NCBI GenBank assembly: GCA_035289485.1
Contig: DATDXA010000004.1
Span: 1-29,836, forward strand
DNA: 29,836 nucleotides
Direction: 5' to 3'
From: an archaeon
GTDB lineage: Archaea; Iainarchaeota; Iainarchaeia; Iainarchaeales; Iainarchaeaceae
Made by a program: the position numbers and the translations under genes. This document shows, piece after piece, positions 4,424-27,346 of the stretch. Each line of letters starts with the position of its first letter. The first letter of the stretch is position 1. Under the pieces are notes generated by a model that saw nothing but the letters and a program-made list of their open reading frames with translations, did not search any database and was not told where the DNA came from.

Positions 4424-7400
4424 TCAGAGCAAATCATCCAAATCCTTTGCTGCCGCATCCTTTGTGTCCTCAAAATCGAGCGCGGCCTTTTCAAGCGTCA
4501 TTTCATGGTGCGAATCCTGCGAGAGCTTCTTTCGAACCTTGAAAAAGCACGGGTAGTTCACCGCTTCGCCAACAATTAGCGCTTCGCCTGTTCGCAGAGA
4601 AGTAATCATATCCAAACTGCGATTATCAAGCCCTTCACTTGTTTCTCCGATGTGCTTCAAATCATACGGGTTTGTTACACGCAAAATTATGTGGGTTCCG
4701 CACTGACTAAGAGCGGTTGTAGAAAGGTTTATCGGCCTCTGTGAGATGAGACAAATACCAGCACCGAACTTCCTGCCTTCACGCGCGATTGTTTCAATTA
4801 TGCTTCTGCTAATCGCCCCTTCCTTTGACATTTTCTCTGGTGCCAACTGATGTGCTTCCTCTAAAATCATCGTGAATGGCGGCACGCGCTTTTGCTGGCG
4901 CTCATTGAAGAGCTTGCGCGCGAAATAGGCGACAATTACCTGTTTTTTTTTCATATCAACAATATCGCTTAAATCTACAATCGTTAACCTGCCTGGTTTT
5001 ACTAAATCGTTGATGCTTGGATTGTCTGTTTTTCCAAAAAGCCCAAGCTGCTCAAGTGAAATAATCCAGCCAATAAGCGAATCTTTTGTCGCTGGCTTAA
5101 TTTCAGAATCGCGGCTGATTTCTGCCTTCACCGCGCCAAAATCATACGGGCCCATGCCATCTTTCATTTCCCTTTTCAATTTATCAATAACTCTCCCCAA
5201 ATCCCTTTTCTGCGCGGGGGAAATTCCCGGAACAATGCCCGCAATCATGCCGGCAGAGAGCTTTGGAACGCCTATCTGCACTTCGCTAGCTTTTATGAAG
5301 CGCGAGTTCTGCGAAAAGTCGGTACTGCCTTTGCCCTGCACCGGCTCGGCAAAAGAGCGGTACTCGCCGTGCGCGTCCATAACTATTACCGCAAGGCGGC
5401 CGTGCTCTTTTTTTCTCTGCAAAAGCTCTTCTAGAAGCACGGAAACAAGGTAGCTATTGTGGATAACTACCCCATTTGCAACAAAATTGGAGTTTTCAAC
5501 CGAAAGATCGTATACGTATTTGTAATCCGGATTTACCTTCTTAACGCTTTTCACTTTATCAAAGAATGCATTCATCTCGCAAAATTGCCTAAGCACCTGA
5601 ACCCTTGCCCTTGCCTGAACCAGATTTTGGGAGGATTCATCCGCAATTTTTTTCAGGGAATCGGCAAAAGACACCACTATCGAATGGCTTGCTTCACCCC
5701 TTCCTTTTGAATGGCTATAGAGAAACTGCTTATGGCAACCATTAACTTTGCATAATTCCTCTGTTGAATAGCCAAGAGTTTCACAAATCCTCTTGATTTC
5801 GAAAAGAGTGCTGTTCCGGTTTATGGAACTTGCGGCTTCAAGTTCGGTTAGGCTCTCGCCCCTTATTTTTAATGCATTTTTCGCCAAAAGAAAAACTGTG
5901 TTTTTTGGTGAAGTTATTTGCATGACAACTCGTCTAGCCGTCGTACTTGAAACACCGCTGCCTGCTGCAATTTGATTGAAATCAAAACCGCTTGAGTAAG
6001 CTGTCTTTACTAGTTCAAGTGCCTTCTGCTCTGAAATGTTGGGAACGGTTTGCAAAACCATATTTGCCTGCGCCAAGGCATTTTCAATGCCCTCGGAGCG
6101 CCTTTCAAAAATCCCGAGCAAAGCCCTGAGCGATTTCCTTGAAGGATTGTCTTTGCGGAAAAGGTAATTGTTTATTGCCGAAGACTCTGACTGCGGCTGT
6201 GGCATTTTGAGAAGGGATATTAGTTCCCGGAGATGCTGGTTTATGTTTGGCACTATGTCAATATTGGTATTGGGCTTTGCGGACGCCCATTTTTTCAGTG
6301 CGGATTTTTTGTAATCAATAAGCAAATCCAAATCGTTAAGTTTGGAAATTTCGCCCGAACCGCTTACAAGCACCCGTTGGTATTTTTTACCGTCAACGGT
6401 TTTAATCTTGCGCAGGGTTATTACGCCTAATTTTGCGTATATTTCCTCGATTCCGTCGGCAAGCCTTTTGCTTGAAATTGTTATATCCACTTCTGGCTTG
6501 TCCGGGTTTACATATCCATCGCAATCTATAAAGGATGAGATGAAGTTCTTGAGCACATTCTTTTGGCTTTGAAGAATTTCGGGCGGGATGAATTTTGTCC
6601 AGCTTGAGTTTGTAAAACCGTATTCGTTCAGGCACCTTGCAAGGACCACGGAATCAATTAATAATTCGCCTTTTGATTTGGCCTCTTTAACGTTCAAATT
6701 GAATTTTTCCCCGCATAGGTCTGCAAAATCCCCCCGAATTAAGTGATTCTCGTTGGAAAAGTTTATTCGTGATTTCATGCTATTGTGCCCTTCAGCAAGA
6801 AGATATGCCATAAGCCTTGCGAAACGTTCATCCACATCATGCACTAGCCTTGTAAAAACTTTTGACTGCTTTTGAAGTGCATGGCCATTTTCAATTGTAA
6901 CCATGCGCAATTTTGAAGCGGTTTTTGTAAAATCTATTTTTGACCTTATGCCGTTCCACTCAATCCTTGGCAAAAAAACATGGTCATTTTCTGAAATAGT
7001 TTGTGCCTCTTTCCACTCAATACGCCCATTAAATACAGGCACCAGGTGTTCTGGCGTAACTTCGACTTCTCGCCCGGCTCTTGTTTTTATTCTGACAACA
7101 CGCTCTGGAGCTTTGCGCCGGTAATACCCCAGTATTTTTGCTGGCGATATTTTTCCGGTTAAATTTGAAATAGCGTAGGCACTTGTGCCGAAATCCTGTT
7201 CCCAAAACTCCACCCCGCCATCAACCTTCTTATTTTTTTCGAGGACAGCATCTACAAGCTCGCCAATAGTTTTCTGCGCACTATTCTCAAGAAATATTTT
7301 TGTGTCAGGTTTTGCACATTTACCAGCTCCAGACATTGCAAGGATTGCAAGGTGCTTCTGGAAGAGGCGGGAGAGGTTTAATTTTACTGAAACATCGTGG

Positions 7401-7822
7401 TGCTCGATTTCGCCCAAATAAAGCCCTTTCTCCAAATCAAGGCCGAGGAATTTTTCTAAAGTTTCTCTTGTTGCAATCCTTGCCTTTGTCCCAGGAGACG
7501 GAGGGAAAGTTGAGCGCTTTATCATGCCGTTTTGATAAACCCCCAGAGGGCGGGTTTTTGCAACCAAATACTCCCACTCTCCTGCAGGGAACTGCTCAAA
7601 GAGCTTGAAGCCTGAACTCTCGAATTCCTTGACGCTCTCAAAGCGCTCAAAGTAGCGGTTGGTTTTGTAAACATTTGTAATAAGGCACACCATTGTGCCT
7701 TCGGAGAAATCGAGCTCGACATACTGGCCCCTGTGAAGCTTGCCTGAAGTTATCACCAAATCCAGTTCGCTTGGCGATGGGCCTTCCTCGCTTGAAATTA
7801 CGGTGCCTATTTCTTCAGCCAT
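4424..7822 (-). CDS. herA: HerA DNA translocase/helicase precursor containing an intein (extein about 511 aa)
   Basis: N-terminal HAS-barrel-like region, HLAILAMSGAGK|S Walker A, DAHGEY, ILEEAH Walker B, IAREGRKFG and ISQRP; same strand as and downstream of nurA. Confidence 0.93.
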   Translation of the reverse strand: MAEEIGTVISSEEGPSPSELDLVITSGKLHRGQYVELDFSEGTMVCLITNVYKTNRYFERFESVKEFESSGFKLFEQFPAGEWEYLVAKTRPLGVYQNGMIKRSTFPPSPGTKARIATRETLEKFLGLDLEKGLYLGEIEHHDVSVKLNLSRLFQKHLAILAMSGAGKCAKPDTKIFLENSAQKTIGELVDAVLEKNKKVDGGVEFWEQDFGTSAYAISNLTGKISPAKILGYYRRKAPERVVRIKTRAGREVEVTPEHLVPVFNGRIEWKEAQTISENDHVFLPRIEWNGIRSKIDFTKTASKLRMVTIENGHALQKQSKVFTRLVHDVDERFARLMAYLLAEGHNSMKSRINFSNENHLIRGDFADLCGEKFNLNVKEAKSKGELLIDSVVLARCLNEYGFTNSSWTKFIPPEILQSQKNVLKNFISSFIDCDGYVNPDKPEVDITISSKRLADGIEEIYAKLGVITLRKIKTVDGKKYQRVLVSGSGEISKLNDLDLLIDYKKSALKKWASAKPNTNIDIVPNINQHLRELISLLKMPQPQSESSAINNYLFRKDNPSRKSLRALLGIFERRSEGIENALAQANMVLQTVPNISEQKALELVKTAYSSGFDFNQIAAGSGVSSTTARRVVMQITSPKNTVFLLAKNALKIRGESLTELEAASSINRNSTLFEIKRICETLGYSTEELCKVNGCHKQFLYSHSKGRGEASHSIVVSFADSLKKIADESSQNLVQARARVQVLRQFCEMNAFFDKVKSVKKVNPDYKYVYDLSVENSNFVANGVVIHNSYLVSVLLEELLQRKKEHGRLAVIVMDAHGEYRSFAEPVQGKGSTDFSQNSRFIKASEVQIGVPKLSAGMIAGIVPGISPAQKRDLGRVIDKLKREMKDGMGPYDFGAVKAEISRDSEIKPATKDSLIGWIISLEQLGLFGKTDNPSINDLVKPGRLTIVDLSDIVDMKKKQVIVAYFARKLFNERQQKRVPPFTMILEEAHQLAPEKMSKEGAISRSIIETIAREGRKFGAGICLISQRPINLSTTALSQCGTHIILRVTNPYDLKHIGETSEGLDNRSLDMITSLRTGEALIVGEAVNYPCFFKVRKKLSQDSHHEMTLEKAALDFEDTKDAAAKDLDDLL
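5456..7318 (-). mobile_element. Intein (621 aa) with a LAGLIDADG homing endonuclease and extra HTH-like segments, inserted in the HerA Walker A
   Basis: Starts with Cys after GK (CAKPDTKI); block B VTPEHLV; LAGLIDADG motifs MAYLLAEGH and FISSFIDCDG; block F/G YVYDLSV...FVANGVVIHN followed by the extein Ser. Confidence 0.95.
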
Positions 7823-8437: not shown

Positions 8438-8845
8438 TCACACAACCGTTACCTTAGCCTCTTTTACCTGCGCCCAAACCTTGTCACAGGTCACTATTTC
8501 AAAATCATTATCAATTCCAGTCTGCAAAATTATGGCATCTGCCATTGAAAGGTTCAACTGCGGATATTTGAGTTTAAGAAAAGCCGCCCTCTGCGCAGTT
8601 TCAAAGTCGGTTGGAAGAAAATCAAGAATTTTTTGGAAATAGATAAGTGATTTTACAGCCGGCTCTCCGCCCCTTTTTCCAATTGAAAAAAGGAATTCAA
8701 AAGCGCTCAGTGCACTCGCCTTTTCCCGAGCAGCATTTGCGGCACCGGCATGTAATAATGCAGCCACGTTTTCAAACCCTTTTTCTTTGTTAGAGACACG
8801 CACCAGCGCAGACGTGTCATAAATTCTTGAAGGCAATCTTGTCAT
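8438..8845 (-). CDS. vapC: VapC-type PIN-domain toxin
   Basis: YDTSAL, AFE, LSMADAII and IVTCD supply the four PIN acidic residues; overlaps the upstream antitoxin. Confidence 0.88.
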   Translation of the reverse strand: MTRLPSRIYDTSALVRVSNKEKGFENVAALLHAGAANAAREKASALSAFEFLFSIGKRGGEPAVKSLIYFQKILDFLPTDFETAQRAAFLKLKYPQLNLSMADAIILQTGIDNDFEIVTCDKVWAQVKEAKVTVV

Positions 8846-9122: not shown

Positions 9123-10220
9123 TTAAAACGGCCTGTTGTCCCTTCTCATTTTCAGCTTTATCGAAGAGCCGAGCTTATCGAGGATTTTATTGGAAATAAT
9201 TTCTATCTCATCATTGCGAAGCTTTGCGTGCATATCTGCTTCTATTAGAACCGTTGGGTATGCGTACTCGCGGTGCATGCAGCTAAGGGCGAATGCAACA
9301 GAGGAAACTTCATCTGCGGTTTTCCGAAGATTTGCAGGGTCTTTGCAGATGAACTCAACGCGCAGTGGCCTGTCAAATAGCGAAGGCTTGATGTAGAGGC
9401 CGTAGATGTGCTCTCCCCACTTTGCATCAAAATCCTGAAGCACTGGATGCTGCTTGATGTTTTTTGTGTAAGTGAAGGCGCAGCTGCGCTCTCCGAGCGC
9501 GAGGAAATAATCAAGCAGGGAAGAATCGAAAAAACCCTCAAGGTCTTCTGAAGGCATCACGTTCTCATAAGGGAGAATGCCTTCCTGCAGAATCTGCCGG
9601 AAGCGCGAGCCCCTGCTGTCCTCAACTGTTGAAATGAGCGTGCACCCTTTTTCTTCTGCAAGAGCATACAGTGATTGGAATTCGTGCACGATATCGGAAT
9701 AATTTTTTGTAAGCCCTGATTCCTTGCGCGGCTTGTCCTGAAACTGGGGCACAATAGAGCCGTCTATGAAAAGATACTTAGGAGAGTGCTCTGCAATTAT
9801 TTTCTTTGCGGTGTTCACTTCCTCGCGCAATCTCATAAGGCTCTTGCTCTGCTCTGCCTCGTCCTCTTCTAGTGAACCTGAACTTAAATGCGGCTCTGGA
9901 AAGTGGAAAAAATCGGGAAAATATTTTGCAGAGGAGATTTTGCCATCCGCATAATCAAAAACAACGCCCACTGCACGGATAAGAACCAAATCAACTGAAG
10001 CAAGGCGCTTTGCAACAAAACCGGAATCAACTCCCGCGACAAGCCCCTGCGGAACCCAGCGTGGGACCTTATACGCAAGGAACTCCTCTGCAAGGTCAAA
10101 GCCGTTGGATACGAACTTTCTTGTTTTGAGGGGCGCAAACTTTTCCGCGGCGGCCTTCTTTCTTTGCTCACCGGAATGGATAGCTTTTACGGTCTGGTCT
10201 ATTACCGAAGTAATGCCCAT
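9123..10220 (-). CDS. nurA: NurA 5'-3' nuclease
   Basis: VAGVDSG, RLREEV, FIDGSI, RVE and YAYPTVLIEADMHAK motifs. Start reassigned to ATG 10220 (MGITSVID), 20 nt below a TTTAAAAA box. Confidence 0.92.
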   Translation of the reverse strand: MGITSVIDQTVKAIHSGEQRKKAAAEKFAPLKTRKFVSNGFDLAEEFLAYKVPRWVPQGLVAGVDSGFVAKRLASVDLVLIRAVGVVFDYADGKISSAKYFPDFFHFPEPHLSSGSLEEDEAEQSKSLMRLREEVNTAKKIIAEHSPKYLFIDGSIVPQFQDKPRKESGLTKNYSDIVHEFQSLYALAEEKGCTLISTVEDSRGSRFRQILQEGILPYENVMPSEDLEGFFDSSLLDYFLALGERSCAFTYTKNIKQHPVLQDFDAKWGEHIYGLYIKPSLFDRPLRVEFICKDPANLRKTADEVSSVAFALSCMHREYAYPTVLIEADMHAKLRNDEIEIISNKILDKLGSSIKLKMRRDNRPF

Positions 10221-10240
10221 AATGAAACAACGCTCCGCGC

Positions 10241-10250
10241 TTTTTAAATA
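10241..10250. promoter_or_regulatory. Bidirectional TATA box (nurA leftward; putative small RNA rightward)
   Basis: TTTTTAAATA inside the inverted repeat GCGCTTT...AAAGCGC; spacing fits ATG 10220 on minus and +1 near 10273 on plus. Confidence 0.55.
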
Positions 10251-10272
10251 AAGCGCAGGGTTCGGTGCCGGT

Positions 10273-10348
10273 GCCAAACCCGACCTGCTCGTCGGGAGGG
10301 AGCGTCCGCCTCGCTTGAGCTCAGCAGGACTGAAAGTCATTGTTTGGC
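10273..10348 (+). ncRNA. Putative structured RNA element, copy A
   Basis: GCCAAAC/GTTTGGC closing stem, CCCGAC-ctgctc-GTCGGG and GAGCG-tccgcct-CGCTT hairpins; homologous to 14646-14704 (-) and 19635-19691 (+). Confidence 0.55.
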
Positions 10349-10408
10349 GACGGGATAGGCCAGCGGCAGGACATTAGTTTAAACAACACATTAGCAATAT
10401 CTCTTTGC

Positions 10409-11269
10409 ATGGAAATGGTAATCCTTGCGGCATTTTGCGCAATGCTTCTTTGGGGCGCTGCGGATTTTCTCATACAAAGGCTCTGCCGCAAAATAGGAAA
10501 CCTTGAAACGCTTCTCCTTATTGATTTCTCGGCCGCGATTCTTCTTCTCCCGATTGTGTGGAACGATTTTGGCGCAATAAACCAAAGCAACCTGCCGCTG
10601 CTCATTGCTCTTGGGGCAATTGGCTGGTTTAGCGGAGTTGTGAGCTTTGAGGCGCTGAATAAAGGAAAGCTCTCGGTTGTTGATGCGATACTTGTACTGG
10701 AACTGCCAGTCACGATAATTCTTGGAATCTACTTTTTCCAAGATGCGATAAGCTCTTTACAATGGGCACTCATCGCGGCGGTGCTTATCGGCACAATTCT
10801 TGTAAGCCTTGCAACGCTTAGCGCCAAAAAAATCCTTGCAAACCTTGAAAAGGGAGCGGCAATAGCGCTTGCAGCCGCATTCATTTTCGGGGTGATGAAC
10901 TTCACAACGGCAGCGGTTGCGCGCGATGTCACTCCAATTCTTGCAATATGGTTTCCCTGGACAATTAGCATGTTTGTAACCGCCGCAATAATGGCAAAAA
11001 GAAAATCACTTTTTGGCACGGTTCGCAAGGTTGCAAGCGCGCCTTGGCTTTCCCTTTTCACGGCTCTTTGCGCAACATTTGGATGGGCAGCATATGCAAT
11101 AGCAGTTGAGGGGGGCGAACTTTCAATAATAACGGCAATCACCGAAAGCTATGTGGTTATTGCCGTGCTAATGGGAGTGCTTGTTAATAGGGAAAAACTC
11201 GCCCCGCACCAGATGGTTGCGGTAATAGGGGTCATTGCCGCAAGCATTTGGCTTGGGATGAGCGCATGA
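10409..11269 (+). CDS. EamA/DMT family transporter
   Basis: About 10 hydrophobic segments in two EamA repeats (WG...D, GKLSVV, NREKL). Start reassigned to ATG 10409, downstream of TTTAAACA at 10378-10385. Confidence 0.88.
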   Translation: MEMVILAAFCAMLLWGAADFLIQRLCRKIGNLETLLLIDFSAAILLLPIVWNDFGAINQSNLPLLIALGAIGWFSGVVSFEALNKGKLSVVDAILVLELPVTIILGIYFFQDAISSLQWALIAAVLIGTILVSLATLSAKKILANLEKGAAIALAAAFIFGVMNFTTAAVARDVTPILAIWFPWTISMFVTAAIMAKRKSLFGTVRKVASAPWLSLFTALCATFGWAAYAIAVEGGELSIITAITESYVVIAVLMGVLVNREKLAPHQMVAVIGVIAASIWLGMSA

Positions 11270-11367
11270 AATAATCAGAAGGCAAAAAGCGGGAATAAAC
11301 ATAACCGTTTCTTGGCAAAATTTTCCTGCGGAAAAATATTTAAACTCCAGAGCACTTACTCTAAGCT

Positions 11368-11781
11368 ATGAAAGCTGTTTTTGAAGTGCGAACAATTGAG
11401 AGCGACTGGAAGCCGCCCTTTAAGAAGAACAATTACGCAAACGAATACGTGGTTGCCGATGGGGAGGCATTTGACCGCATAATGGGAAATGGCAATGATG
11501 AGCCTGTTTTTGAACTGATGGAAACTGCAGGGGACAGGGCAAAGGTCAAATACAGCAGGCTTTTTACAATAAAAGAGCCAAGCGAGCGCGTTGGAAAGGA
11601 CAAAACAGTCTGGCTTATACGCGGCGATGAGCAGCCCCTGAGCTATTTATGGGGCGAGAAAGGAATTACAAAAAAGATTGTTTACAAGGGAATTGCCTCA
11701 CGCGAACAGGAATCAGTGCAGGAACAGGCTGAAGAAATAGTTGAAATTACAGAGCCGCCATCGCAAGAGAACGGGCAATAA
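11368..11781 (+). CDS. Hypothetical protein, 137 aa
   Basis: Clean ORF with TTTAAAC about 25 nt upstream and an acidic C-terminal tail. Confidence 0.75.
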   Translation: MKAVFEVRTIESDWKPPFKKNNYANEYVVADGEAFDRIMGNGNDEPVFELMETAGDRAKVKYSRLFTIKEPSERVGKDKTVWLIRGDEQPLSYLWGEKGITKKIVYKGIASREQESVQEQAEEIVEITEPPSQENGQ

Positions 11782-11824
11782 GCTCTTGCAACATCTTTTA
11801 ATTTTTACATAGCGTCTTTTTCTA

Positions 11825-12535
11825 ATGACCAATAAGATTTACCAGGCTGATTCGTACGCAAAAGAGTGCGAAGCTACTGTTCTGAAAGCCGATGGCAAAT
11901 TTGTTGTACTTGATAGCACTGTGTTCTACGCGCAGGGAGGCGGGCAGCCGTCTGACACGGGAAAAATAATTTCACAAAGCGGGAAAGAGTACAAAGTGGT
12001 TGCCGCGAAAAATTCCGGAGAAGATGTTGTTCACGAGCTTGATTCTGAAGGCTTGAGCGCGGGAGAAAAAGTAAAATGCGCAATTGATTGGGAGAGGCGC
12101 TACAAGCTTATGCGCATGCACACATCCGCGCACCTAGTTGCCGCCTGCATTATGAAAGAGACCGGAGCGCTAATCACGGGAAACCAGCTTGATTTGAAGC
12201 AATCCCGCATGGATTTTAATGTTTTGGATTTTGACCGCGCACTTCTCAAAACCTTTGAGGAAAAGGTGAACGGAGCGATAAAAGATGCGTTGCCTGTTTC
12301 TATTTCTTTTATGGAAAGGGAGAAGGCGCTGCAAAAGCCCGAGCTTTTCCGGCTCAAAGACGTGCTCCCGAAAGATATTCCAATTCTTCGCATTGTCGCA
12401 ATTGGAGAATTTGATGTGCAGGCAGATGGCGGAACGCATGTGAAAAACACTTCTGAAATCAAGGGGATAAAAATTGTTGATTTCAAGAACAAGGGATCGG
12501 AGAACCGAAGGATTTACTGGGAACTGGTTGATTAA
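11825..12535 (+). CDS. alaXM: AlaX-M type alanyl-tRNA editing protein
   Basis: FYAQGGGQPSDTG, IDWERRYKLMRMHTSAH and DGGTHV (Asp at the usual Cys position). Confidence 0.92.
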   Translation: MTNKIYQADSYAKECEATVLKADGKFVVLDSTVFYAQGGGQPSDTGKIISQSGKEYKVVAAKNSGEDVVHELDSEGLSAGEKVKCAIDWERRYKLMRMHTSAHLVAACIMKETGALITGNQLDLKQSRMDFNVLDFDRALLKTFEEKVNGAIKDALPVSISFMEREKALQKPELFRLKDVLPKDIPILRIVAIGEFDVQADGGTHVKNTSEIKGIKIVDFKNKGSENRRIYWELVD

Positions 12536-13153
12536 ATGAAAATTATAGACCTTACAATGCCGCTTGACGCCAATACTCCGGTGTATCCGGGCGACCCGAA
12601 ACCGAAAATAACAATTGCCGCAACAATCGAACGCGACGGCTGCAACGGAAAGCATCTCGAATTCAATTCGCATTTCGGAACGCACATCGACGCTCCGTTT
12701 CATATGCTTGCGGATGGGAAAAAGCTTGATGAGTTCCCACTGGAAAAATTCATCGGTGAAGCTATTGTAATTGATGCGCGCAAGAAGAATTCTGAGAATG
12801 AAATTATTGTGGACCTTTCTCAAGTGAAGCGCGGGGACATTGTCTTTTTCTGGACTGGGAATACTGACAAGGCGTATACTGCGGAGTTCTTTGAAAACAT
12901 ACCCGTGATTTCTCTGCAAACCGCAAAGGAGCTCTGCGCGCGCGGCGCGAAAATAATCGGGATTGATTCGTACACTCCGGACAATGAGCCATTTCTCACG
13001 CACAAGGAGCTTCTGGCGCACGAGATACTGATTTTGGAAAACCTTGTGAACCTTGAAAAAGTTGCGGGAAAGAGATTTGAGTGCATAATAATGCCCCTAA
13101 AGATTGTGGATGCAGATGGGGCGCCTTGCAGGGTTGTCGCGCGCCTGCCTTAA
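12536..13153 (+). CDS. Cyclase family / kynurenine formamidase-like metal hydrolase
   Basis: HFGTHIDAPFH, IGIDS, ILENL and DGAPCRVVA motifs. Confidence 0.9.
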   Translation: MKIIDLTMPLDANTPVYPGDPKPKITIAATIERDGCNGKHLEFNSHFGTHIDAPFHMLADGKKLDEFPLEKFIGEAIVIDARKKNSENEIIVDLSQVKRGDIVFFWTGNTDKAYTAEFFENIPVISLQTAKELCARGAKIIGIDSYTPDNEPFLTHKELLAHEILILENLVNLEKVAGKRFECIIMPLKIVDADGAPCRVVARLP

Positions 13154-13204
13154 AAGGGCGGCTTCACAGTAGGATTAAATTCCCGTTCGAACATCATCTA
13201 AATC

Positions 13205-13555
13205 ATGGAACTAAAGCAGGCAATAGTTATCCGGCAGGACCTTGGAATGGGAAAGGGAAAAATCGGGGTACAGTGCGCACACGCTTCGCTTGCGGCATAT
13301 GAGAAGGCACAAAAGCAGAGCCCGATGTGGGTTGAGGAATGGAAAAGCGGCGGCACCGCTAAAATAGTTTTGAAAATCGGCTCGGAAAAGGAGCTTCTCT
13401 CTTTGTTTGAAAAAGTCAAGAAAATACTTCCCGCAGCGCTCATAAAAGATGCTGGCAGAACGCAAATAGAGGAAGGAAGCCCAACCTGCATTGGAATAGG
13501 GCCTGCGCCTGAGAGCGAAATAAACAAGTTCACAAAAGATTTGAAGCTTCTTTAG
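13205..13555 (+). CDS. pth2: Peptidyl-tRNA hydrolase 2
   Basis: MGKGKIGVQCAHA, KIVLK, DAGRTQ and GIGP motifs. Confidence 0.96.
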   Translation: MELKQAIVIRQDLGMGKGKIGVQCAHASLAAYEKAQKQSPMWVEEWKSGGTAKIVLKIGSEKELLSLFEKVKKILPAALIKDAGRTQIEEGSPTCIGIGPAPESEINKFTKDLKLL

Positions 13556-13586
13556 AGCATTCCATTTTTGGTTGCGGCGGGATTGC

Positions 13587-13814
13587 ATGGAACGAACGAT
13601 CAAGCTTTTTGGAATAGTTGCCGGAATTTTTGCGATATTTGCAAGCATTGCGCTCTTCGCATATTTTGGGGATTTTCAGGGAGTATTGCTCGGGGACAAA
13701 TTATTTTCACAGGTAAACCCTATCGGAGTTTTTGCAATTTTTGGAATATTGCTCTTTGCAGGAATTTATTTTTTCACGGCCGCGGGGCACATCATAAAAG
13801 AAGCGGTGAAATGA
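13587..13814 (+). CDS. Small two-TM membrane protein
   Basis: Two hydrophobic stretches; ATG 13587 preferred; lies between pth2 and the GTPase gene. Confidence 0.65.
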   Translation: MERTIKLFGIVAGIFAIFASIALFAYFGDFQGVLLGDKLFSQVNPIGVFAIFGILLFAGIYFFTAAGHIIKEAVK

Positions 13815-13837
13815 ATATTTTTTAGGGATGATAAAAA

Positions 13838-14608
13838 ATGGGTTACTGGGACATTGTAAAGAAAATTGTTCGGGACGCGGATATCGTAATGGAAATAGTT
13901 GACGCGCGCTTTCCGCAGCAGAGCAGAAATAACGAGCTTGAGGATTTTGTGCGCGGCTCTGGGAAAAAGCTCATAATAGTGCTCAACAAATCAGACCTTA
14001 TTTCAAAGCGGAACGCCCAGAAGGCAAAAGATTCCATCACCGAGAGATGCGTGTTTGTTTCCGCACGGCAGCGAAGCGGGGTAAAGGCGCTCAAAATCGG
14101 CATTGAAAAGCTTGTTTCAGGAGATGAGGCAAAGGTTGCAATTGTCGGCTACCCAAACACGGGAAAGAGCAGCATCATAAATATGCTAAGAGGAAGAAAG
14201 GCGGCTCGCACTTCAAGCACTGCCGGATTCACTAGGGGCAAGCAGCACGTGCGCATAAGCAACAAAATCCTTCTAATAGATACGCCCGGAGTGATACCGC
14301 TGCAGGAGAGCAATGAAACGCTTATGGCTATGCTCTCGGCCAAAAACGCGCACCAGCTAAATGATATGGAAGGCGCCGGAATGGAAATTGCTGAATATTT
14401 AATTTTGAATATGCCAGAAACGCTCAGAGGATTTTATGGCGTGGAAGCAAAAGACGGGGAGGAGTTTTTGGAAAAACTTGCATTTCACAGAAAAAAGCTG
14501 CTCTCGGGCGGAAGGCCTGATTTGAACTCAGCTGCAAGAACGCTAATTGAGGATTTCCAGCGCGGGAAAATCAATGAAAATACGCAGGGCAAAAAGGCGC
14601 GAAAATAG
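13838..14608 (+). CDS. Circularly permuted GTPase, RbgA/YlqF family (large-subunit biogenesis)
   Basis: G4-G1-G3 order: DAR, NKSDL, GYPNTGKSS, T, DTPGV. Confidence 0.92.
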   Translation: MGYWDIVKKIVRDADIVMEIVDARFPQQSRNNELEDFVRGSGKKLIIVLNKSDLISKRNAQKAKDSITERCVFVSARQRSGVKALKIGIEKLVSGDEAKVAIVGYPNTGKSSIINMLRGRKAARTSSTAGFTRGKQHVRISNKILLIDTPGVIPLQESNETLMAMLSAKNAHQLNDMEGAGMEIAEYLILNMPETLRGFYGVEAKDGEEFLEKLAFHRKKLLSGGRPDLNSAARTLIEDFQRGKINENTQGKKARK

Positions 14609-14645
14609 GGCAAAACTGAGCGTAAAATAAGCTAATTTACTCAAG

Positions 14646-14704
14646 GCCAATCGAGCCCAAGCGAAGATTGGGCGCCCCCTCCCGACGGGCTTGTCGGGAT
14701 CGGC
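14646..14704 (-). ncRNA. Putative structured RNA element, copy B
   Basis: Minus strand reads GCCGATCCCGAC-aagccc-GTCGGGAGGGGGCG-cccaatctt-CGCTTGGGCTCGATTGGC; the closing stem has a G-U pair only in this orientation. Confidence 0.55.
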
Positions 14705-14771
14705 AACAAAAGCTATTTATTAATGTAAAACACCCAAATATAAGGTTTCGAGCCCAAGCAAGGGTATCACA

Positions 14772-15704
14772 ATGGCACAGGCAAAAACAGCAAACACTCC
14801 TAGCATAATTGAGACCATTGACAAGATGGTCAAAGAGGGCGAGAGCGAGGAAAAAATCCTCAACACCCTCAAGGACATAGGCATAAGCCCGGATAATGCA
14901 AGAAGGCTTTTGATACTTGGGCAGGCGGATGTTTTTTCACTTTTGAAAGGCGAAATAAGAAGGACAATAAAACAGGAAATAGAAACAGGCGGCGGAGTGC
15001 AGCCGGCGCAGCAGGGGCTTGATGAGAAACAGTCAGCAAAGTACATGGCAGAACTTAAGGATTATGAAAAGAGCATGGCAAAGCAAAACGAGTCCATGAA
15101 AAACGAGCTCGAGGAAAAAATAAGGCGCATAACTGAAATGGAGCAGAAAACCAAAACAGGGTATTCTGGCCAGTCAAAAGAAATCCAAGAGCAGGTGCTC
15201 ACAAACCTGCGGGAATACGAAAAGAACCTCTCGGCGCAGAACAAGGCCTTCCAGGAACAGATGCTCTCAAAAATTGCAAAAGGCCCGGGGCTTGTTGACA
15301 AAGTCAGGGCAGAGGCGCTTGGATCTTCTGGAAAGGACGGCGAAGCGCTCAAAAATTACCAGAAAGTGATGCTTAACCAGAGCAAGGAGTTCCAACAGGA
15401 CATGTACTCAAAAATCCAGAAGATGAATGAACTGGAGGAAAAGACCCAGAAAAGATTGAACCAGGTAACTGATGAAGTGAAAAAGGTAGAGGCGGATATC
15501 GGGGAAGTTGGGATGCGCGGAGTTGGAACGCGAAACAAATTCATAAGTTATATTGTGATAGGAATGGGGCTTGTATTTGGCGCGGGAACGCTCTACACAT
15601 TTTACATGAACACGCAGGCGGCGTTCACCACTCAGAGCATAATCACGATGACTGTGATGGCGATAATTACGGTGACGCTTTTAGTTGTTGGAACGCTTAT
15701 ATAA
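14772..15704 (+). CDS. Coiled-coil protein with three internal repeats and two C-terminal TM helices
   Basis: Repeats LKDYEKSMAKQN / LREYEKNLSAQN / LKNYQKVMLNQS; hydrophobic C-terminus. Confidence 0.8.
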   Translation: MAQAKTANTPSIIETIDKMVKEGESEEKILNTLKDIGISPDNARRLLILGQADVFSLLKGEIRRTIKQEIETGGGVQPAQQGLDEKQSAKYMAELKDYEKSMAKQNESMKNELEEKIRRITEMEQKTKTGYSGQSKEIQEQVLTNLREYEKNLSAQNKAFQEQMLSKIAKGPGLVDKVRAEALGSSGKDGEALKNYQKVMLNQSKEFQQDMYSKIQKMNELEEKTQKRLNQVTDEVKKVEADIGEVGMRGVGTRNKFISYIVIGMGLVFGAGTLYTFYMNTQAAFTTQSIITMTVMAIITVTLLVVGTLI

Positions 15705-15750
15705 AAAATTAGAAATAGTTTACTGCGTCGAAATTATTTTTTAGAAAAAG

Positions 15751-15891
15751 TCACTGAATATTTTTCGAATCCAATTTGCTGTACTCCCGCAGCTCGCGCA
15801 GCGCATTTTCCAAATGAATGCGCTTTCGCATGCCCTTCTCCTTTGCATGGAGCTTTTCAACTTCCATCAAAACGAGTTCGAATTCCAGCAA
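15751..15891 (-). CDS. Small helical hypothetical protein, 46 aa (below the ORF-track cutoff)
   Basis: TTG start after a GGTG RBS; MLEFELVLMEVEKLHAKEKGMRKRIHLENALRELREYSKLDSKNIQ; just downstream of hjc. Confidence 0.55.
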   Translation of the reverse strand: MLEFELVLMEVEKLHAKEKGMRKRIHLENALRELREYSKLDSKNIQ

Positions 15892-15919
15892 TTTAGCACC
15901 AATAAAATTAAACGGAAGA

Positions 15920-16324
15920 CTAATTTTTAAGCTGAACCTGCTCTCCTAAAAGAACATCCAAAGTCGCGCCAACCCTCTGCGCTTCCGAGAGCGAAATCGC
16001 ATAATGCTTGTTTTTGTGGAAGTGCGAGGGCTTTATGAAAATCCAGCCCTTATTCGGGTAGCGCCATGCCACATAGACTTCTGCGCCCGCAAGCTCTTCC
16101 CATTTGAAAAGCTCCTGCATCTGGTAATCAAGAATTGTGAGGTTGTTGTTTCTCCACGCCTTTGCCTCGAGAACAATCGAGCGCCCTTTTCCCATTACAA
16201 TCAAATCAGGCATTGGAAGCGCATTCTTGCCAGAGCCAGCAGTGCGCGCGACCGCGTACCCCTTGCCCCAGAAAAGCTTGAGAAGCTCGCGCTCAGCGTT
16301 AGCGCCCTTGTTGTAGTGAGCCAT
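15920..16324 (-). CDS. hjc: Holliday junction resolvase Hjc
   Basis: KGANAERELL, RTAGSG, PDLI and LEAK (PD-(D/E)xK fold). Confidence 0.93.
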   Translation of the reverse strand: MAHYNKGANAERELLKLFWGKGYAVARTAGSGKNALPMPDLIVMGKGRSIVLEAKAWRNNNLTILDYQMQELFKWEELAGAEVYVAWRYPNKGWIFIKPSHFHKNKHYAISLSEAQRVGATLDVLLGEQVQLKN

Positions 16325-16555
16325 TATGCAAGAAAGAGGAAAGCCGGATTTAAATAGAGTTCTGGCAATGCGGAAGCATTCAAAACGCCGTTTAAAGGCA
16401 TTTTAAGGCATTTAGGGGCTGAAACCACCCTTTTTAATGATTCTGCTTGAAAATAATAAATAGTTCCCAAAAGGGAACAATTGCATTTAACAGAAATTTG
16501 GGGTTAACGGCAGCAAGAACGGCTTTTGCCGCCATTGCGCTTGAAGCTTGAAACA

Positions 16556-16846
16556 ATGAATGCAGGAGAACAAAACTCCTTGGAAATCGGTTTGGAAGTC
16601 GTGCCGAACTCAAGAAAGTTCGGGATAATGGGCTTCAATCCGTGGACAAACTCTTTGAGAGTAAAGGTCAGGGCAAAACCGCAAAAAGGCAGAGCCAATG
16701 ACGAAATAACCCAAGAGCTGGAAAAATTGTTTCACGCCAACCTTCGCATAATCGCGGGGGAAAAGGCCAGGAAGAAAAAATTAATCTTCACAGGAATTTC
16801 AAGAGAGCAGTTCGAGAGAATTGTTATTGAAAATTCCAAACCCTAA
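16556..16846 (+). CDS. DUF167/UPF0235 (YggU-like) protein
   Basis: VVPNSRK, LRVKVRAKPQKGRANDE and GEKARKK motifs; ATG 16556 preferred. Confidence 0.88.
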   Translation: MNAGEQNSLEIGLEVVPNSRKFGIMGFNPWTNSLRVKVRAKPQKGRANDEITQELEKLFHANLRIIAGEKARKKKLIFTGISREQFERIVIENSKP

Positions 16847-16879
16847 TTCTGCAATACACAAAAAAGGAGATGTAAAAAA

Positions 16880-18286
16880 ATGGCAAAAACATACATAAAC
16901 ACGGTCAAGTACCTTGTGAAAATAAAATTTGAAATAGACGGAATCGTTGATAAGCCAGACATTGTTGGCGCGATATTTGGGCAAAGCGAAGGGCTTCTCG
17001 GAGACGAGATGGATTTAAAGGAGCTGCAAAAAAACGGCAAGCTCGGAAGAATAGAAATAAATTTCACAACTTCAATGGGAAGAACAAAAGGCGAAATACT
17101 TGTGCCATCCTCAATGGACATGGCAGAGACCAGCCTGCTTGCAGCGGGAATTGAAAGTGTTGACAAGGTTGGCCCGTGCGAGGCAAAGCTTGAAATTCTT
17201 GATATTGAAGACACAAGAAATGACAAGAGAAAGGAAATCAAGGACAGGGCAAAGGAAATTCTAAAGCGCCTCATGGACAAGAATTCTCCGGATACGCAGT
17301 CCCTTAGCGAAGAGATTCGCGAGAATGCGAGGGCGGCAGACATTGAAGAGTTCGGCACGGATAAACTCCCTGCAGGCCCGGACATTGAAACGAGCGAGGA
17401 AATAATCGTTGTGGAAGGAAGGGCTGATGTAATCAACATGCTAAAAAATCAGATAAGAAATGTGATTGGCATGAACGGCTCGAACATTTCACAAACCATT
17501 GTGGACCTGAGCAAAAGAAAGCAGATAACCGCCTTCGTCGATGGCGACCGCGGCGGCTCGCTCAACGCGAGAAAACTCGCGCAGATGGCGCGCGTAGAGT
17601 TCATTGCAAAAGCCCCTGACGGAAAGGAAGTCGAAGAGCTTACAAGAAAAGAAATTCTCCAGTCGCTCAAAAAAAGGGTGAAGGCTTCTGAAGAGCTTGC
17701 AGAGGAGAGAAGCTTCAGGCCCCCTCAGAGAGAATTCGAGCACCCGCAAGGGCAAAGGCCCCCTTTTGAGAGAAGGGAAGGAGGCTTTAGAGGCCCGCCG
17801 AATATGGGAATGAATCCAAGAAGGCCTCCGATGAGGGACCACTCAAGAGTCCCGCCCATGAGAAGGGGGCCGCCATTTGAGAGGCACGGGAACGGAATGG
17901 GATTTGAAAGGCCCGCATTTGAAAGAACTCCATGGAGCCCTGAGAGAACACCTTTCGGAGAAAGTGGCCAGCCGCAAGTAAAGGCCGCACCTGCGGTATA
18001 TCTAAGCGCGCAAGAACAGGAATTGTTCAAGCCTATTTTTGAAGGGCTCAAGGGCTCGATGAAGGCGAAAATACTCGGCGCGGACAACGAAGTTCTAAAA
18101 GAAGTAAAGGTCAAGGACATTGTCGCGGAAATCGGGAAAGCTAAAAATCCGCAGGCAATAGTGCTTGATGGCGTAATCACAAAAAGGCTCGTTGATGCCG
18201 CGGAAAAAGCGGGCGCGAAATACGTGATAGGCGCAAGGAAAGGAAAAATTGAGGGAAATGAAAAAGTAAAAGCGGCAACACTTTAA
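16880..18286 (+). CDS. dnaG: Archaeal DnaG (Toprim, exosome-associated)
   Basis: VDKPDIVGAIFGQSEGLLG, IVVEGRADV, DGDRGG and GKEVEEL motifs; low-complexity insert before the C-terminal domain. Confidence 0.95.
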   Translation: MAKTYINTVKYLVKIKFEIDGIVDKPDIVGAIFGQSEGLLGDEMDLKELQKNGKLGRIEINFTTSMGRTKGEILVPSSMDMAETSLLAAGIESVDKVGPCEAKLEILDIEDTRNDKRKEIKDRAKEILKRLMDKNSPDTQSLSEEIRENARAADIEEFGTDKLPAGPDIETSEEIIVVEGRADVINMLKNQIRNVIGMNGSNISQTIVDLSKRKQITAFVDGDRGGSLNARKLAQMARVEFIAKAPDGKEVEELTRKEILQSLKKRVKASEELAEERSFRPPQREFEHPQGQRPPFERREGGFRGPPNMGMNPRRPPMRDHSRVPPMRRGPPFERHGNGMGFERPAFERTPWSPERTPFGESGQPQVKAAPAVYLSAQEQELFKPIFEGLKGSMKAKILGADNEVLKEVKVKDIVAEIGKAKNPQAIVLDGVITKRLVDAAEKAGAKYVIGARKGKIEGNEKVKAATL

Positions 18287-18294
18287 AGTTGCCG
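18273..18294. terminator. Hairpin between convergent genes
   Basis: CGGCAAC-actttaaa-GTTGCCG over the dnaG stop, followed by A/T tracts. Confidence 0.4.
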
Positions 18295-18336
18295 TAAAAT
18301 ATTTTTAATTAAATGAACCGTGGGTTTTCTTCGGTT

Positions 18337-18792
18337 TTATCTTTTTCTTTTATACGCGAACTTTGACTTTGGAAAATCCGGAAGGTCGCGAACTCTTTCC
18401 TCTATCGGTAGAATTATTTTATCGGTCCGGTAGAGCGTGTAGCCAACGAAGAATACCGCAAGCCACAAGAGCAGAGCGCCCATTGGGCCAAGAAGGCCGA
18501 TTGCGAACTGGCGCTGCGTGAGCAATGGGTGCTCAAGCCTTGTAACTATACCAGTTGATCGGTAGAGCGTATCGGCGCAGTTGCTGAACTGTGCCCTCTG
18601 GTCAGAGATGCTTTCATTTGTGTTTATTCCAAGAATGCATTTGTCATAATACTTCATGGTGTCCCATGAATCAAACATAGTAGAAGATGCCTGCACGAAA
18701 AGCAACGCAGTTGCAAACATTATGAATGCCCCAATAAGCTTTGGAAGATGAACATCGCTTCCTGCCACCCTGAAATAGAAAATCCTTCGCAC
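18337..18792 (-). CDS. Hypothetical two-TM membrane protein with a Cys-containing loop
   Basis: GTG start after a GGTGA RBS; two hydrophobic segments. Confidence 0.78.
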   Translation of the reverse strand: MRRIFYFRVAGSDVHLPKLIGAFIMFATALLFVQASSTMFDSWDTMKYYDKCILGINTNESISDQRAQFSNCADTLYRSTGIVTRLEHPLLTQRQFAIGLLGPMGALLLWLAVFFVGYTLYRTDKIILPIEERVRDLPDFPKSKFAYKRKR

Positions 18793-18864
18793 TCAAATCA
18801 CCGCAATCTAATACACTTCACCGATATTTAAACGTTTCCGCGAAGGGCTTCTGGGGAAGTGGAG

Positions 18865-18937
18865 TGGGCCGGGCAGGATTCGAACCTGCGACCACATCGA
18901 TGTAAACGATGTATCATAACCGCTAGACCACCGGCCC
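18865..18937 (-). tRNA. tRNA-Val(TAC)
   Basis: GGGCCGG acceptor stem, CATCG-TTTACAT-CGATG anticodon arm, GCAGG-TTCGAAT-CCTGC T arm; CCA not encoded. Confidence 0.96.
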
Positions 18938-19085
18938 GACCTTTTTCTTTTCGTTACACGAAAAGAAAAACATCGACGAAAAAGAAAAGTGTCTGGCTAA
19001 AAGCATCTGCACCATAATATTAAATAAAGAATAACAGGAAATTGGTAATAAAGCCTTTTAACGGCAAAAAACGGAGGATTTTACA

Positions 19086-19634
19086 ATGATTGTATTGGTT
19101 GTTGGCGCAATAGTAGTAATAGGGGCACTTTGGTTTGTACTCTCATACAACGGGTTTGTGCAGCTAAAAAACAGGATAGACAATTCCTGGAGCCAGATAG
19201 ATGTCCAGCTAAAGAGGCGCTTTGATCTGGTGCCAAACCTTATTGAAACCGTGAAGGGCTATGCAAAGCATGAGAAGGAAACGCTCAAGATGGTTACAGA
19301 GGCAAGGGCGGCAATAACAAAGGCAGGAAGCGGCAAGGACAAGATGGCGGCAGAGAACATGCTCACGGGAGCGCTCAAATCGCTTTTCGCGGTTTCTGAA
19401 AGCTATCCTGATTTGAAGGCAAATCAGAACTTTCTGATGCTCCAAGAAGAGCTTGCAGGAATCGAATCGAAAATCGCATACGCAAGGCAGTTCTACAATG
19501 ATACAGTGCTCTCATTCAACACCAAGGTTGAAACACTTCCAGACAGCATACTTGCCGGAATGTTTGGCTTTACAAAAAGGGAGTATTTCCAGATAGAAGA
19601 AGCAGCGCGAACGAATGTGAAAGTGCAGTTCTAA
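19086..19634 (+). CDS. lemA: LemA family protein
   Basis: N-terminal TM, WSQIDVQLKRRFDLVPNL, ESYPDLKANQNF and ARQFYND motifs. Confidence 0.96.
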   Translation: MIVLVVGAIVVIGALWFVLSYNGFVQLKNRIDNSWSQIDVQLKRRFDLVPNLIETVKGYAKHEKETLKMVTEARAAITKAGSGKDKMAAENMLTGALKSLFAVSESYPDLKANQNFLMLQEELAGIESKIAYARQFYNDTVLSFNTKVETLPDSILAGMFGFTKREYFQIEEAARTNVKVQF

Positions 19635-19691
19635 CTCCCGAAAAGCCTTTCGGGAGGAGGCGCCCTTTCTTCGCCTCGTGGCTCGAAAGGC
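19635..19691 (+). ncRNA. Putative structured RNA element, copy F (lemA-htpX intergenic)
   Basis: CTCCCGAA-aagcct-TTCGGGAG-GAGGCG-ccctttctt-CGCCTC-GTGGCTCGAAAGGC; homologous to copies A and B. Confidence 0.55.
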
Positions 19692-19719
19692 CTGAATTTT
19701 TGATTTCACAGGTGAACTC

Positions 19720-26026: not shown

Positions 26027-27346
26027 ATGTTCGAATTTTTAAAGAAGAAAATATCTGGCTTTACGGACAAATTAAAGGAAACAATACAGGGAAAGCAGAA
26101 GGCGCAGGAGAAGCAGCCCTCAAAACCTGAAGAAATTACTCAAGAGCCGGCGCAAGAACAATCTTTGCAAGCAGCTGAAATTAAAACTGATTCTGAAATT
26201 ATTCAACCTGAAAAGCAGGAGCAAACTGCGCAGCAGGCTGAAGAGAAACCTGCTGTGGAGAAAAAGGCGCCCAAAAAAGAAAAACACTCAAAACAAACTC
26301 AGGCGCAGGAAGAGAAAGCGGAAATACAAAATGAAATTCATTCTGAAGCGGCACTTGAAACTGAGCTTCAAGCAGCAGAACCTGAACATGATTTTCAAAT
26401 AGGCGGCGAGGACAGGAGCGCCATAGAAAAAGTAAAGGAAGTGCGAGAGGATGAGAAGCGCGAACTAAAGGCCAAGGTTGGCATAACAAAAAAACTATTC
26501 GGCTTTCTTGGCGGCAAAATAAAAATTTCGGAAGGCGAAATAGGCAATTTCTTTGAAGAATTTGAACTCAGCTTGCTTGAATCTGATGTGCAGCAGGATG
26601 CCGCGGAAGCCATTGTAAAAGAACTCAAAGGAAGAATTTTGGGAAAGGAAATAAGCGCAAAAGAGGACGCCACAAAATTCATTAAAAATGAAATACGTGC
26701 ATCGCTTGCAAAAATAATGGAAACAAACAAAGTGGAGCTGCTTTCTATGAAAGGGCACCCCACTAAAATACTTTTTTTAGGGCCTAACGGAGCTGGCAAA
26801 ACCACATCCATTGCAAAGGTTTCGGATTATTTGATGAAGAAAGGCAAAAGCGTGATACTTGCCGCGGGAGACACATTCAGGGCCGCTTCGATTGAGCAGC
26901 TAGAGGAGCACGCAAATAAGCTTGGAGTGAAAATGATAAAGCACAAATATGGCTCTGACCCTGCGGCGGTTGCATTCGACGCCGTGAAGGCTGCGGAAGC
27001 TAAGGGAATTGATTATGTTCTCATAGATACTGCAGGAAGGCAGGAAACTAATAGGAACCTAATTGAAGAGCTCAAAAAGATTGAACGCGTGGTAAAACCC
27101 GATTTGAAAATTTATGTTGGAGAGGCGTACACGGGGCAAGCTCTGCTGCAGCAAGCAACCGAATTTGACAAAGCTATTGGGATTGATGGATTTATTCTGA
27201 GCAAAATAGATACGGATGCAAAAGGCGGAACAGCGATTTCACTTTTGTACACACTCAAAAAACCGATTCTTTTTGTTGGGACGGGGCAGAGGTATTCGGA
27301 TTTGCTTGAATTTAAGCCGGAATTTATAATTGACAGGATAATTTGA
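26027..27346 (+). CDS. ftsY: SRP receptor FtsY with an acidic N-terminal region
   Basis: MFEFLKKK, GPNGAGKTT, DTFRAA, DTAGR, DAKGG and GTGQ motifs. Confidence 0.96.
   Translation: MFEFLKKKISGFTDKLKETIQGKQKAQEKQPSKPEEITQEPAQEQSLQAAEIKTDSEIIQPEKQEQTAQQAEEKPAVEKKAPKKEKHSKQTQAQEEKAEIQNEIHSEAALETELQAAEPEHDFQIGGEDRSAIEKVKEVREDEKRELKAKVGITKKLFGFLGGKIKISEGEIGNFFEEFELSLLESDVQQDAAEAIVKELKGRILGKEISAKEDATKFIKNEIRASLAKIMETNKVELLSMKGHPTKILFLGPNGAGKTTSIAKVSDYLMKKGKSVILAAGDTFRAASIEQLEEHANKLGVKMIKHKYGSDPAAVAFDAVKAAEAKGIDYVLIDTAGRQETNRNLIEELKKIERVVKPDLKIYVGEAYTGQALLQQATEFDKAIGIDGFILSKIDTDAKGGTAISLLYTLKKPILFVGTGQRYSDLLEFKPEFIIDRII

Follow-up and report, generated by a model that had tools for sequence, protein, structure and literature searches.

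The stretch of DNA analysed here (the window) comprises 29,836 nt of contig DATDXA010000004.1, assembly GCA_035289485.1, from an archaeon of the family Iainarchaeaceae. A first-pass annotation had reported three stretches in it, copies A, B and F, as a dispersed structured element; they are present at the reported places, one covariance model matches all three, and they share a hairpin with an AGG linker and a second GC-rich region. Copy A has a NurA-domain gene to its left, copy B lies between a GTPase gene (13838-14608) and an open reading frame (ORF) at 14772-15704, and copy F lies between lemA and htpX, where its start is 2 nt past the stop codon of lemA (19632-19634) and its end 27 nt short of the htpX start (19720). 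The strand on which the element was first reported is called the annotated strand below and its complement the R strand. At copy A the NurA-domain gene has the R strand as its sense strand; at copy B the R strand is the + strand and the sense strand of both neighbours; copy F is among the 5 of 35 copies in which the annotated strand is the neighbours' sense strand. We consider, with a probability of about 80%, that these copies belong to a population of very small non-coding, non-autonomous insertion elements of one DPANN lineage, which insert at gene boundaries.

The copies were counted in the genome of the window (G000; 1.156 Mb, 64 contigs) and in its relatives. A simple pattern search of G000 gave 10 strict matches and a profile search gave 30 matches at E<0.02. 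Covariance model R1, which was built from 19 simple copies (alignment A2), gave 36 matches at E<=1 and 31 at E<0.01, so that the three copies first reported are a small part of the whole. A home-made generic hairpin-plus-pseudoknot finder was discarded as too noisy. Among 61 relatives, 27 match at E<=0.001, and 19 of the 22 relatives in the family of the window are among these; the family genomes without any copy found by R1 are G010, G014 and G019. Of 151 genomes sampled evenly across the phylum, 26 match at E<=1e-5; by family there are matches in f1 (15/19), f2 (4/7), f14 (2/2), f24 (2/4), f17 (1/3) and f11 (1/26), and the model search found none in f3 (0/15), f27 (0/12), f30 (0/17) and f21 (0/13). 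Model R1 may overlook diverged variants. The copy numbers are lower bounds, as R1 does not find a variant in which the second hairpin, H2, is short; an example is 228-300 of locus L205 (G009:C13), which lies in opposite orientation right beside a model-detected copy. Several copies are found at contig ends, and copies also occur in tandem.

On the annotated strand the element begins with hairpin P1 (6 bp with a 6-nt loop), which is followed by a 3-nt linker. The P1 loop pairs through its 3′ part with the four bases after the linker, which gives a pseudoknot of 4 bp, and H2 follows directly after these four bases. The outer stem of H2 has 8 bp, usually with one mismatch; its internal loop has 3 and 2 bases, and a small hairpin lies further in. 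The core measures about 51-60 nt and reaches about 140 nt with extra hairpins; H2 is plain and short in some copies, and others have one or two additional hairpins in the P1 loop or three sub-hairpins in H2. The linker and the loops vary, and the conserved positions are the H2 internal loop and two loop bases only.

The fold was examined for covariation in three alignments. In the 19 copies from the own genome 91.6% of cells are paired, against 71.8% in shuffles, and 15 of 21 pairs changed on both sides; in 34 copies from relatives the values are 93.0%, 67.2% and 19 of 21, and in 69 further copies 92.2%, 66.1% and 20 of 21. Controls in which the structure was slid along the alignment gave 25-49% of cells paired. 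The alignments of 34 and 69 copies were fitted to the nested structure and not to the pseudoknot, and the pseudoknot helix is paired in 97.4% of cells in the own genome (2 of 4 pairs changed on both sides), in 89.4% in the relatives (3 of 4) and in 91.2% in the further copies (3 of 4). The pairing of a hairpin loop with bases downstream, as in an H-type pseudoknot, is thus backed by changes on both sides. This covariation is very strong and shows that selection acts on the fold itself. A test for coding found two of the three frames of the complementary strand open in 70 and 67 of 78 cores, which at core lengths of 45-70 nt has no power.

The first-pass annotation had rightly seen a structured element that covaries and contains a pseudoknot, and its covariation in the first hairpin is borne out in all three alignments; other parts of its structure were revised. 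The P1 loop does take part in the pseudoknot, but the partner that was proposed for it, a GRGC inside the second hairpin, gives 79.7% of cells paired with none of four pairs changed on both sides. A competing helix had been described in all copies; it is paired in 67.4% of cells against 66.1% in shuffles, 78 of 500 shuffles do as well, and what serves as its 3′ arm is the 3′ strand of H2, a conserved hairpin. Being no better than shuffles, the competing helix lends no support to two alternative folds. The closing stem that was proposed is private to copy A. In copy B its 3′ arm falls inside H2 (14645..14673) as a strand of that hairpin, and the stem is no feature of the family; the copies flanked by repeats start at the first base of P1. 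No Rfam family matches the element: Rfam 15 at gathering score gave three tRNAs only in the whole window, and with copy A at E<=10 gave noise only (CRISPR-DR56 with 15.8 bits, where the gathering score is 35). In viral contigs 9 stretches fit a 19-base pattern, about as many as estimated for chance; only one of them reaches 24.7 bits, and this one lacks a proper P1. A full-text literature search found no description of such an element.

The flanks of the copies carry the evidence of insertion. For each copy the upstream and downstream flanks were compared with one another; flanks taken from different copies served as the null, and the cut-off was the 99th percentile; 3 of 37 copies from relatives were skipped for N or short flanks, and 8 of 69 further copies were not testable. 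Significant flanking direct repeats of 11-49 nt were found in 30 of 129 copies (6/34 own, 11/34 from relatives and 13/61 further). In 25 of the 30 the end of the upstream repeat is at most 3 nt from the first base of P1. In several copies the downstream repeat follows H2 immediately, and what appeared as a tail of the element is therefore target sequence. On the gene strand the duplicated stretch is a gene junction: it holds the final codons and the stop of the upstream gene, and often takes in the next gene's ribosome-binding site or its first codons, so that neither the upstream gene loses its end nor the downstream gene its start. The elements thus insert at gene boundaries with duplication of 11-49 nt of target, and the P1 end is joined precisely, often at a tRNA +1, a start codon or a stop codon.

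Filled and empty sites were compared between related genomes. In G009:C12 a 51-nt core lies between two copies of a gene end of about 32-36 nt, and the congener G013:C6 has a single copy of this gene end and no element, the left flanks being identical at 163 of 176 positions. Microhomology is present at the H2-side junction of this insertion, the one filled site examined for it. At a second polymorphic site G009:C13 is filled, with an element and an adjacent variant, and G013:C53 has a 36-nt spacer. Between lemA and htpX the model detects only copy F of G000; by eye there are variants in G005 and G002, G001 is ambiguous, and G003, G004 and G006 are empty (3 of 7 congeners). The junction of rpoB′ and rpoA′ is occupied in seven genomes (G000, G005, G004, G012, G016, G015 and G020) and empty in five, with spacers of 3-22 nt (G003, G006, G007, G022 and G010). 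G015 and G020 have different variants, which attach to the duplicated rpoB′ end at one common base, and the orphan copy of that end is still nearly intact; this argues for independent insertions. At tRNA-Trp 5 of 16 loci are occupied, 0-1 nt from the tRNA +1, and the P1 and pseudoknot sequences all differ. A 57-nt repeat in L097 (2308-2364 and 2458-2514) ends in the start of an element. Loci L038 (G011) and L039 (G008), from two genera, have different variants between repeats of nearly the same target of about 20 nt containing GCTGCTAATCACTT; this points either to a hot spot common to both or to an old orthologous insertion.

The neighbours of the copies are housekeeping genes. In the own genome they include rpoB″|rpoB′|rpoA′ (two copies), S15|S3Ae, S9|S2, PheRS alpha|beta, SufC|SufB, NDK|dUTPase, ATP synthase F, PCNA, RNase P p30, tRNase Z and four tRNAs. 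In 30 of the 35 own copies, by manual reading, the gene that starts at the P1 side has the R strand as its sense strand. The exceptions are F, C18, C3:45474, C7 and C25; P1 begins 1-4 nt past a stop codon in four of these five, and at C18 the nearest called gene ends 178 nt off. The P1 end lies within 2 nt of the 5′ end of a tRNA called by ARAGORN in 19 of 136 copies (own 4/35, relatives 2/32, further 13/69); three more copies in relatives adjoin a tRNA 5′ end by eye, and at two loci (L062 and L048) the P1 end adjoins the 3′ end of a tRNA on the opposite strand.

Two of these neighbourhoods have features of their own. At L094 (G000:C22:7573-8064, +) a 163-aa ORF rich in Lys, Ala and His has its ATG upstream of the element and reads through it in frame, and its first ~9 codons are duplicated past the element without a start codon. 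Locus L041 (G045:C48), in 1343-1480 and 2443-2540, has a full tRNA-Pro gene and, 1 kb off, a partial copy of its first ~28 bases; this is a segmental duplication that includes the element, as an element about 80% identical stands before each tRNA-Pro copy.

The relevant strand was examined from the mispairs. The 120 distinct copies give 1901 nested-helix cells, of which 1749 are Watson-Crick pairs, 9 are G.T/T.G and 37 are A.C/C.A (binomial p = 4e-5). The statement that G-U pairs fix the annotated strand is contradicted by these numbers. An A.C on the annotated strand is a G.U on the complement, so wobble pairs are tolerated on the R strand, and this bias is present although the model that collected the copies favours G.U on the annotated strand. 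For copies F, B and A the minimum-energy fold of the R strand is the same as the centroid and the family consensus, and the other strand departs from it; the z-scores of the folds are weak on either strand (+0.4 to -1.9). The H2 internal loop reads GA/GAA on the R strand. Pseudoknots of A-form geometry accommodate short loops as they are placed on the R strand. The loop placement and the GA/GAA loop would agree with the R strand being the relevant one.

Table 1. Positions of copies A, B and F of the element and of their parts in the window.
Feature	Position	Strand	Details	Basis
A, model match	10278-10340	+	53.8 bits	
A, core from P1 to H2 end	10279..10330	+	H2 degenerate in copy A	
A, hairpin P1	arms 10279-10284 / 10291-10296	+	loop 10285-10290	sequence; P1 columns covary
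A, pseudoknot	10287-10290 pair with 10300-10303	+	linker 10297-10299	sequence; pseudoknot columns
A, hairpin H2, weakened	10304..10330	+		alignment A2; R-strand minimum-energy fold gives hairpin
B, model match	14635-14699	-	69.8 bits	
B, core	14645..14698	-		model match, sequence
B, hairpin P1	14681..14698	-	arms 14698-14693 / 14686-14681	sequence, covariation
B, pseudoknot	14674..14690	-	14690-14687 pair with 14677-14674	sequence, covariation
B, hairpin H2	14645..14673	-	conserved internal loop, small inner hairpin	R-strand fold is the family consensus
F, model match	19636-19702	+	69.8 bits	
F, core	19637..19692	+		model match, sequence
F, hairpin P1	19637..19654	+	arms 19637-19642 / 19649-19654	sequence, covariation
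F, pseudoknot	19645..19661	+	19645-19648 pair with 19658-19661	sequence, covariation
F, hairpin H2	19662..19692	+	outer arms 19662-19669 / 19685-19692, inner hairpin 19673-19682	alignment A2, covariation

Details of copies A, B and F are presented in Table 1. Copy A shares a further block of about 24 nt beside P1 (10251-10278, +) with the copies at G000:C5 ~26640-26665 and G000:C38 ~1356-1380 (C38a). The block has a doubled GGTGCC, and on the gene strand a TATA-like box then follows; it may be a separate regulatory site or an extension of a subfamily. The NurA-domain gene (9123-10340, -) lies two ORFs beyond a HerA helicase ORF of 1132 aa with an intein (4424-7822, -; domains Intein_splicing, LAGLIDADG_3, DUF87 and HerA_C), and a PIN-domain ORF (8438-8845) lies between them.

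As to how the elements move, the only mechanism that we commit to is that a copy would be inserted in a copy-and-paste manner through a folded single-stranded intermediate. The strand concerned is probably the R strand, and the insertion machinery would recognise the fold of this intermediate and not its sequence. Most copies have the R strand as the sense strand of their neighbours, and the element would therefore be carried in operon mRNAs and in pre-tRNA leaders. Target-primed synthesis or template switching is suggested, rather than cut-and-paste by a classical transposase, because the duplications are long and variable, one end is precise and the other end, in the one filled site examined for it, has microhomology. 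In a retroposon-like form of this process the R-strand RNA would be a tRNA 5′ leader that is freed by RNase P and that target-primed synthesis recopies into DNA at gene boundaries, with a polymerase other than a canonical reverse transcriptase. Release by RNase P would give the precise P1-side end of all copies, and the copies landing at another tRNA +1 would become new source genes; we hold this form of the process to be improbable.

Enzymes that may mobilise the element were searched with family models. The TnpB zinc ribbon was found in 2 of 5 genomes, DDE_Tnp_1 in 3 of 5, Y1_Tnp in 3 of 5 and in 9 of 23 family genomes, and Phage_integrase in 5 of 5, which does not discriminate, the integrase loci being outside the model scan. 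The core ends were also compared for terminal inverted repeats, and in 107 cores a mean of 4.24 of 14 terminal bases match against 3.84 in shuffles, with a maximum of 8. Genome G009 has 7 Y1 genes. One of them is in an IS200-like element of about 610 nt (L237, G009:C12, 1425-2037) with end hairpins of 8 bp and TAAA; with six other G009 contigs this element has at least 7 copies in G009, and none was found in G013, whose contig ends exactly where the G009 copy begins. The end hairpins, folded for the one G009:C12 copy, have 8-bp stems and 4-nt loops and are unlike P1 or H2. A small GIY-YIG gene was also considered. In G000 it encodes a single-domain protein of 83 aa of the UPF0213 type (L221 1495-1746; G000:C24:13187-13438), which matches the UPF0213 structures 1zg2 (E = 9.6e-17) and 1ywl, and the gene is present in 5 of 5 genomes and in 86 of 151 genomes of the phylum sample.

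These genes are the basis of an explanation in which the element is REP/REPIN- or PATE-like (repetitive extragenic palindromic, REP) and is moved by a Y1 HUH transposase such as RAYT or the TnpA of IS200/IS605, or in which it is a target of a GIY-YIG nuclease of the Ssn kind. The distribution of Y1_Tnp in 9 of 23 family genomes, one gene being 360 nt from the polymorphic G009 insertion, is in its favour, as is the GIY-YIG gene being found in 20 of 26 element-carrying genomes against 66 of 125 others, a comparison uncorrected for kinship. Yet no Y1 gene was found in the element-rich genomes G001, G012 and G013, no element flanks the Y1, TnpB, DDE or GIY-YIG genes that were fetched, and the IS200-like end hairpins of G009 differ from P1 and H2. 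Target duplication is seen in 30 of 129 copies, which is not a known feature of IS200/IS605 elements and REPINs. At the fetched Y1 loci (4 + 11) a covariance search with filters off found no flanking copy, the nearest being the one 360 nt off in G009:C12, and no element was found within about 1.5 kb of the GIY-YIG gene in 5 genomes. The GIY-YIG gene is moreover common in families where the element was not found or is rare (f11 24/26, f21 13/13). Ssn nucleases cut single-stranded DNA beside multi-copy hairpin repeats, and Ssn belongs to cd10448, whereas the protein here matches UPF0213, as far as the available part of PMC11893778 describes Ssn. This explanation is very unlikely; a link to a HUH/TnpA transposase, which the first-pass annotation had suggested, was looked for and not found, and of its options a REP-like repeat is the nearest, though the element has target duplications and does not flank the Y1 genes as REPs and REPINs would.

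A function for the host on the R strand, as a cis-acting RNA of spacers between cistrons and of pre-tRNA or mRNA leaders, acting in the processing or end protection of transcripts or in the coupling or uncoupling of translation with spread being secondary, would fit the sense orientation of 30 of 35 copies inside essential operons, the position immediately ahead of the tRNA +1, where cleavage by RNase P, whose RNA is present, would fall, the wobble tolerance, minimum-energy fold and GA/GAA loop that favour the R strand, and the tRNA-Ile leader copy that is kept in both G000 and G004. The same junctions are however empty in sister genomes with their 3-22-nt spacers intact, 5 of 35 copies are reversed, three family genomes have no copy, and copy A is upstream of the TATA-like box of its neighbour, outside the leader by manual reading; this function is thus unlikely to be the explanation. 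It is also possible to do without dedicated machinery, if the stable hairpins stall replication and template switching between forks, as a microhomology-mediated templated insertion, copies the element with its flank. Variable and at times very long duplications (11-49 nt), the H2-side microhomology of the G009 insertion and the lack of a linked transposase would follow from it, but the same two boundaries (first P1 base and last H2 base) recur in many independent copies, the covariation represents selection on the fold and the joins to tRNA +1 are exact, and we give this explanation a low chance. A further explanation is a self-cleaving ribozyme, a riboswitch or a free-standing small RNA, of which a small RNA or ribozyme was among the options of the first-pass annotation. 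A compact pseudoknotted fold with covariation would suit such RNAs, and the one precise end recalls the ribozymes at the ends of retroelements. These are hardly tenable any more, as the copies lie in both orientations in unrelated operons and gene contexts with patchy presence, the linker and loops are variable, wobble pairs are nearly absent, two alternative folds are unsupported and Rfam gives no match, for copy A even at E<=10.

Several observations weigh against the reading of the element as a mobile insertion. A significant flanking repeat is lacking in 99 of 129 copies; old insertions would fit this, which is an assumption. The exact join to the tRNA +1 is not accounted for by random insertion followed by selection, and the tRNA-Ile leader that is occupied in both G000 and G004 could mean function. 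No mobilising enzyme turned up among the families searched: RVT_1 (PF00078) is in 0 of 5 genomes and in 0 of 23 family genomes, with matches of the controls in 3 of 14 genomes, Cas1 is in 0 of 5 genomes, and no element lies beside any TnpB, DDE or Y1 locus that was fetched, in genomes 63-99% complete. No strain-level polymorphism was seen at four copies when contigs of four DNA runs were compared with a 14-kb contig, as no joint skips a copy, but this comparison is uninformative. Wobble pairs are scarce on either strand (2.4% of the 1901 cells), so that the form concerned may be single-stranded DNA and an RNA intermediate is putative.

Short interspersed nuclear elements (SINEs) and other non-autonomous retroposons are inserted by target-primed reverse transcription, and Ty3 and the TRE elements of Dictyostelium have an affinity for tRNA genes. 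The element resembles SINEs in being a short structured non-coding unit without terminal inverted repeats and with affinity for tRNA genes, and it has target duplications of variable length with one precise end and one looser end with microhomology. It differs from them in its prokaryotic host, in having no A-rich or repeat tail and in the lack of RVT_1 in the 23 family genomes, where other polymerases may have reverse-transcriptase activity. Rickettsia palindromic elements are likewise small folded repeats that are tolerated at or inside gene ends of reduced genomes, to which the copy read through by the 163-aa ORF at L094 is comparable; their host domain and fold are different, and the element described here has clear target duplications. 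REP, BIME and REPIN sequences are also extragenic GC-rich hairpins; they lie in operon spacers, a genome has many of them, and structure is kept over sequence. REP/REPIN and IS200/IS605 elements are not known to duplicate the target on insertion. The element does, as is directly visible in the filled and empty sites of G009 and G013; it also has a pseudoknot and, after P1, another hairpin, and its copies flank none of the Y1 genes that were fetched. MITEs (miniature transposable elements with inverted repeats), in the accessible parts of PMC10969869 and PMC11602168, are like it small, multi-copy, non-autonomous and intergenic, with target duplications. The element has no terminal inverted repeats, and its duplications vary in length and are long, where those of MITEs are short and of one length; at the TnpB, Y1 and DDE loci that were fetched, no insertion sequence sharing its ends turned up as a candidate parent. 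The available part of PMC11893778 describes NTS/SRM as hundreds of oriented hairpin repeats around genes that are recognised as single-stranded DNA, the NTS being a simple hairpin of about 30 nt without a pseudoknot and Ssn a single-domain GIY-YIG clade (cd10448). In comparison with that description, the own genome has a small GIY-YIG gene as well, which is UPF0213-like and unflanked by copies, and the element has a pseudoknot. The defining features of REP/REPIN, MITEs, IS200-derived elements and Rfam families are thus not found in the element, which shares only structural hallmarks with SINEs.

The copies break assemblies and give false N-terminal extensions and orphan gene fragments, and their masking is advised in annotation. 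In the own genome the element accounts for duplicated gene tails and starts. It is invisible to the standard searches for inverted repeats, transposases and Rfam families, and with it DPANN genomes, which are thought to be streamlined and poor in transposons, gain an abundant mobile element. The combination of long variable duplications, no inverted repeats and exact tRNA joins fits no described prokaryotic mechanism of transposition, and an undescribed enzyme or a route through RNA or a single strand is therefore suggested.

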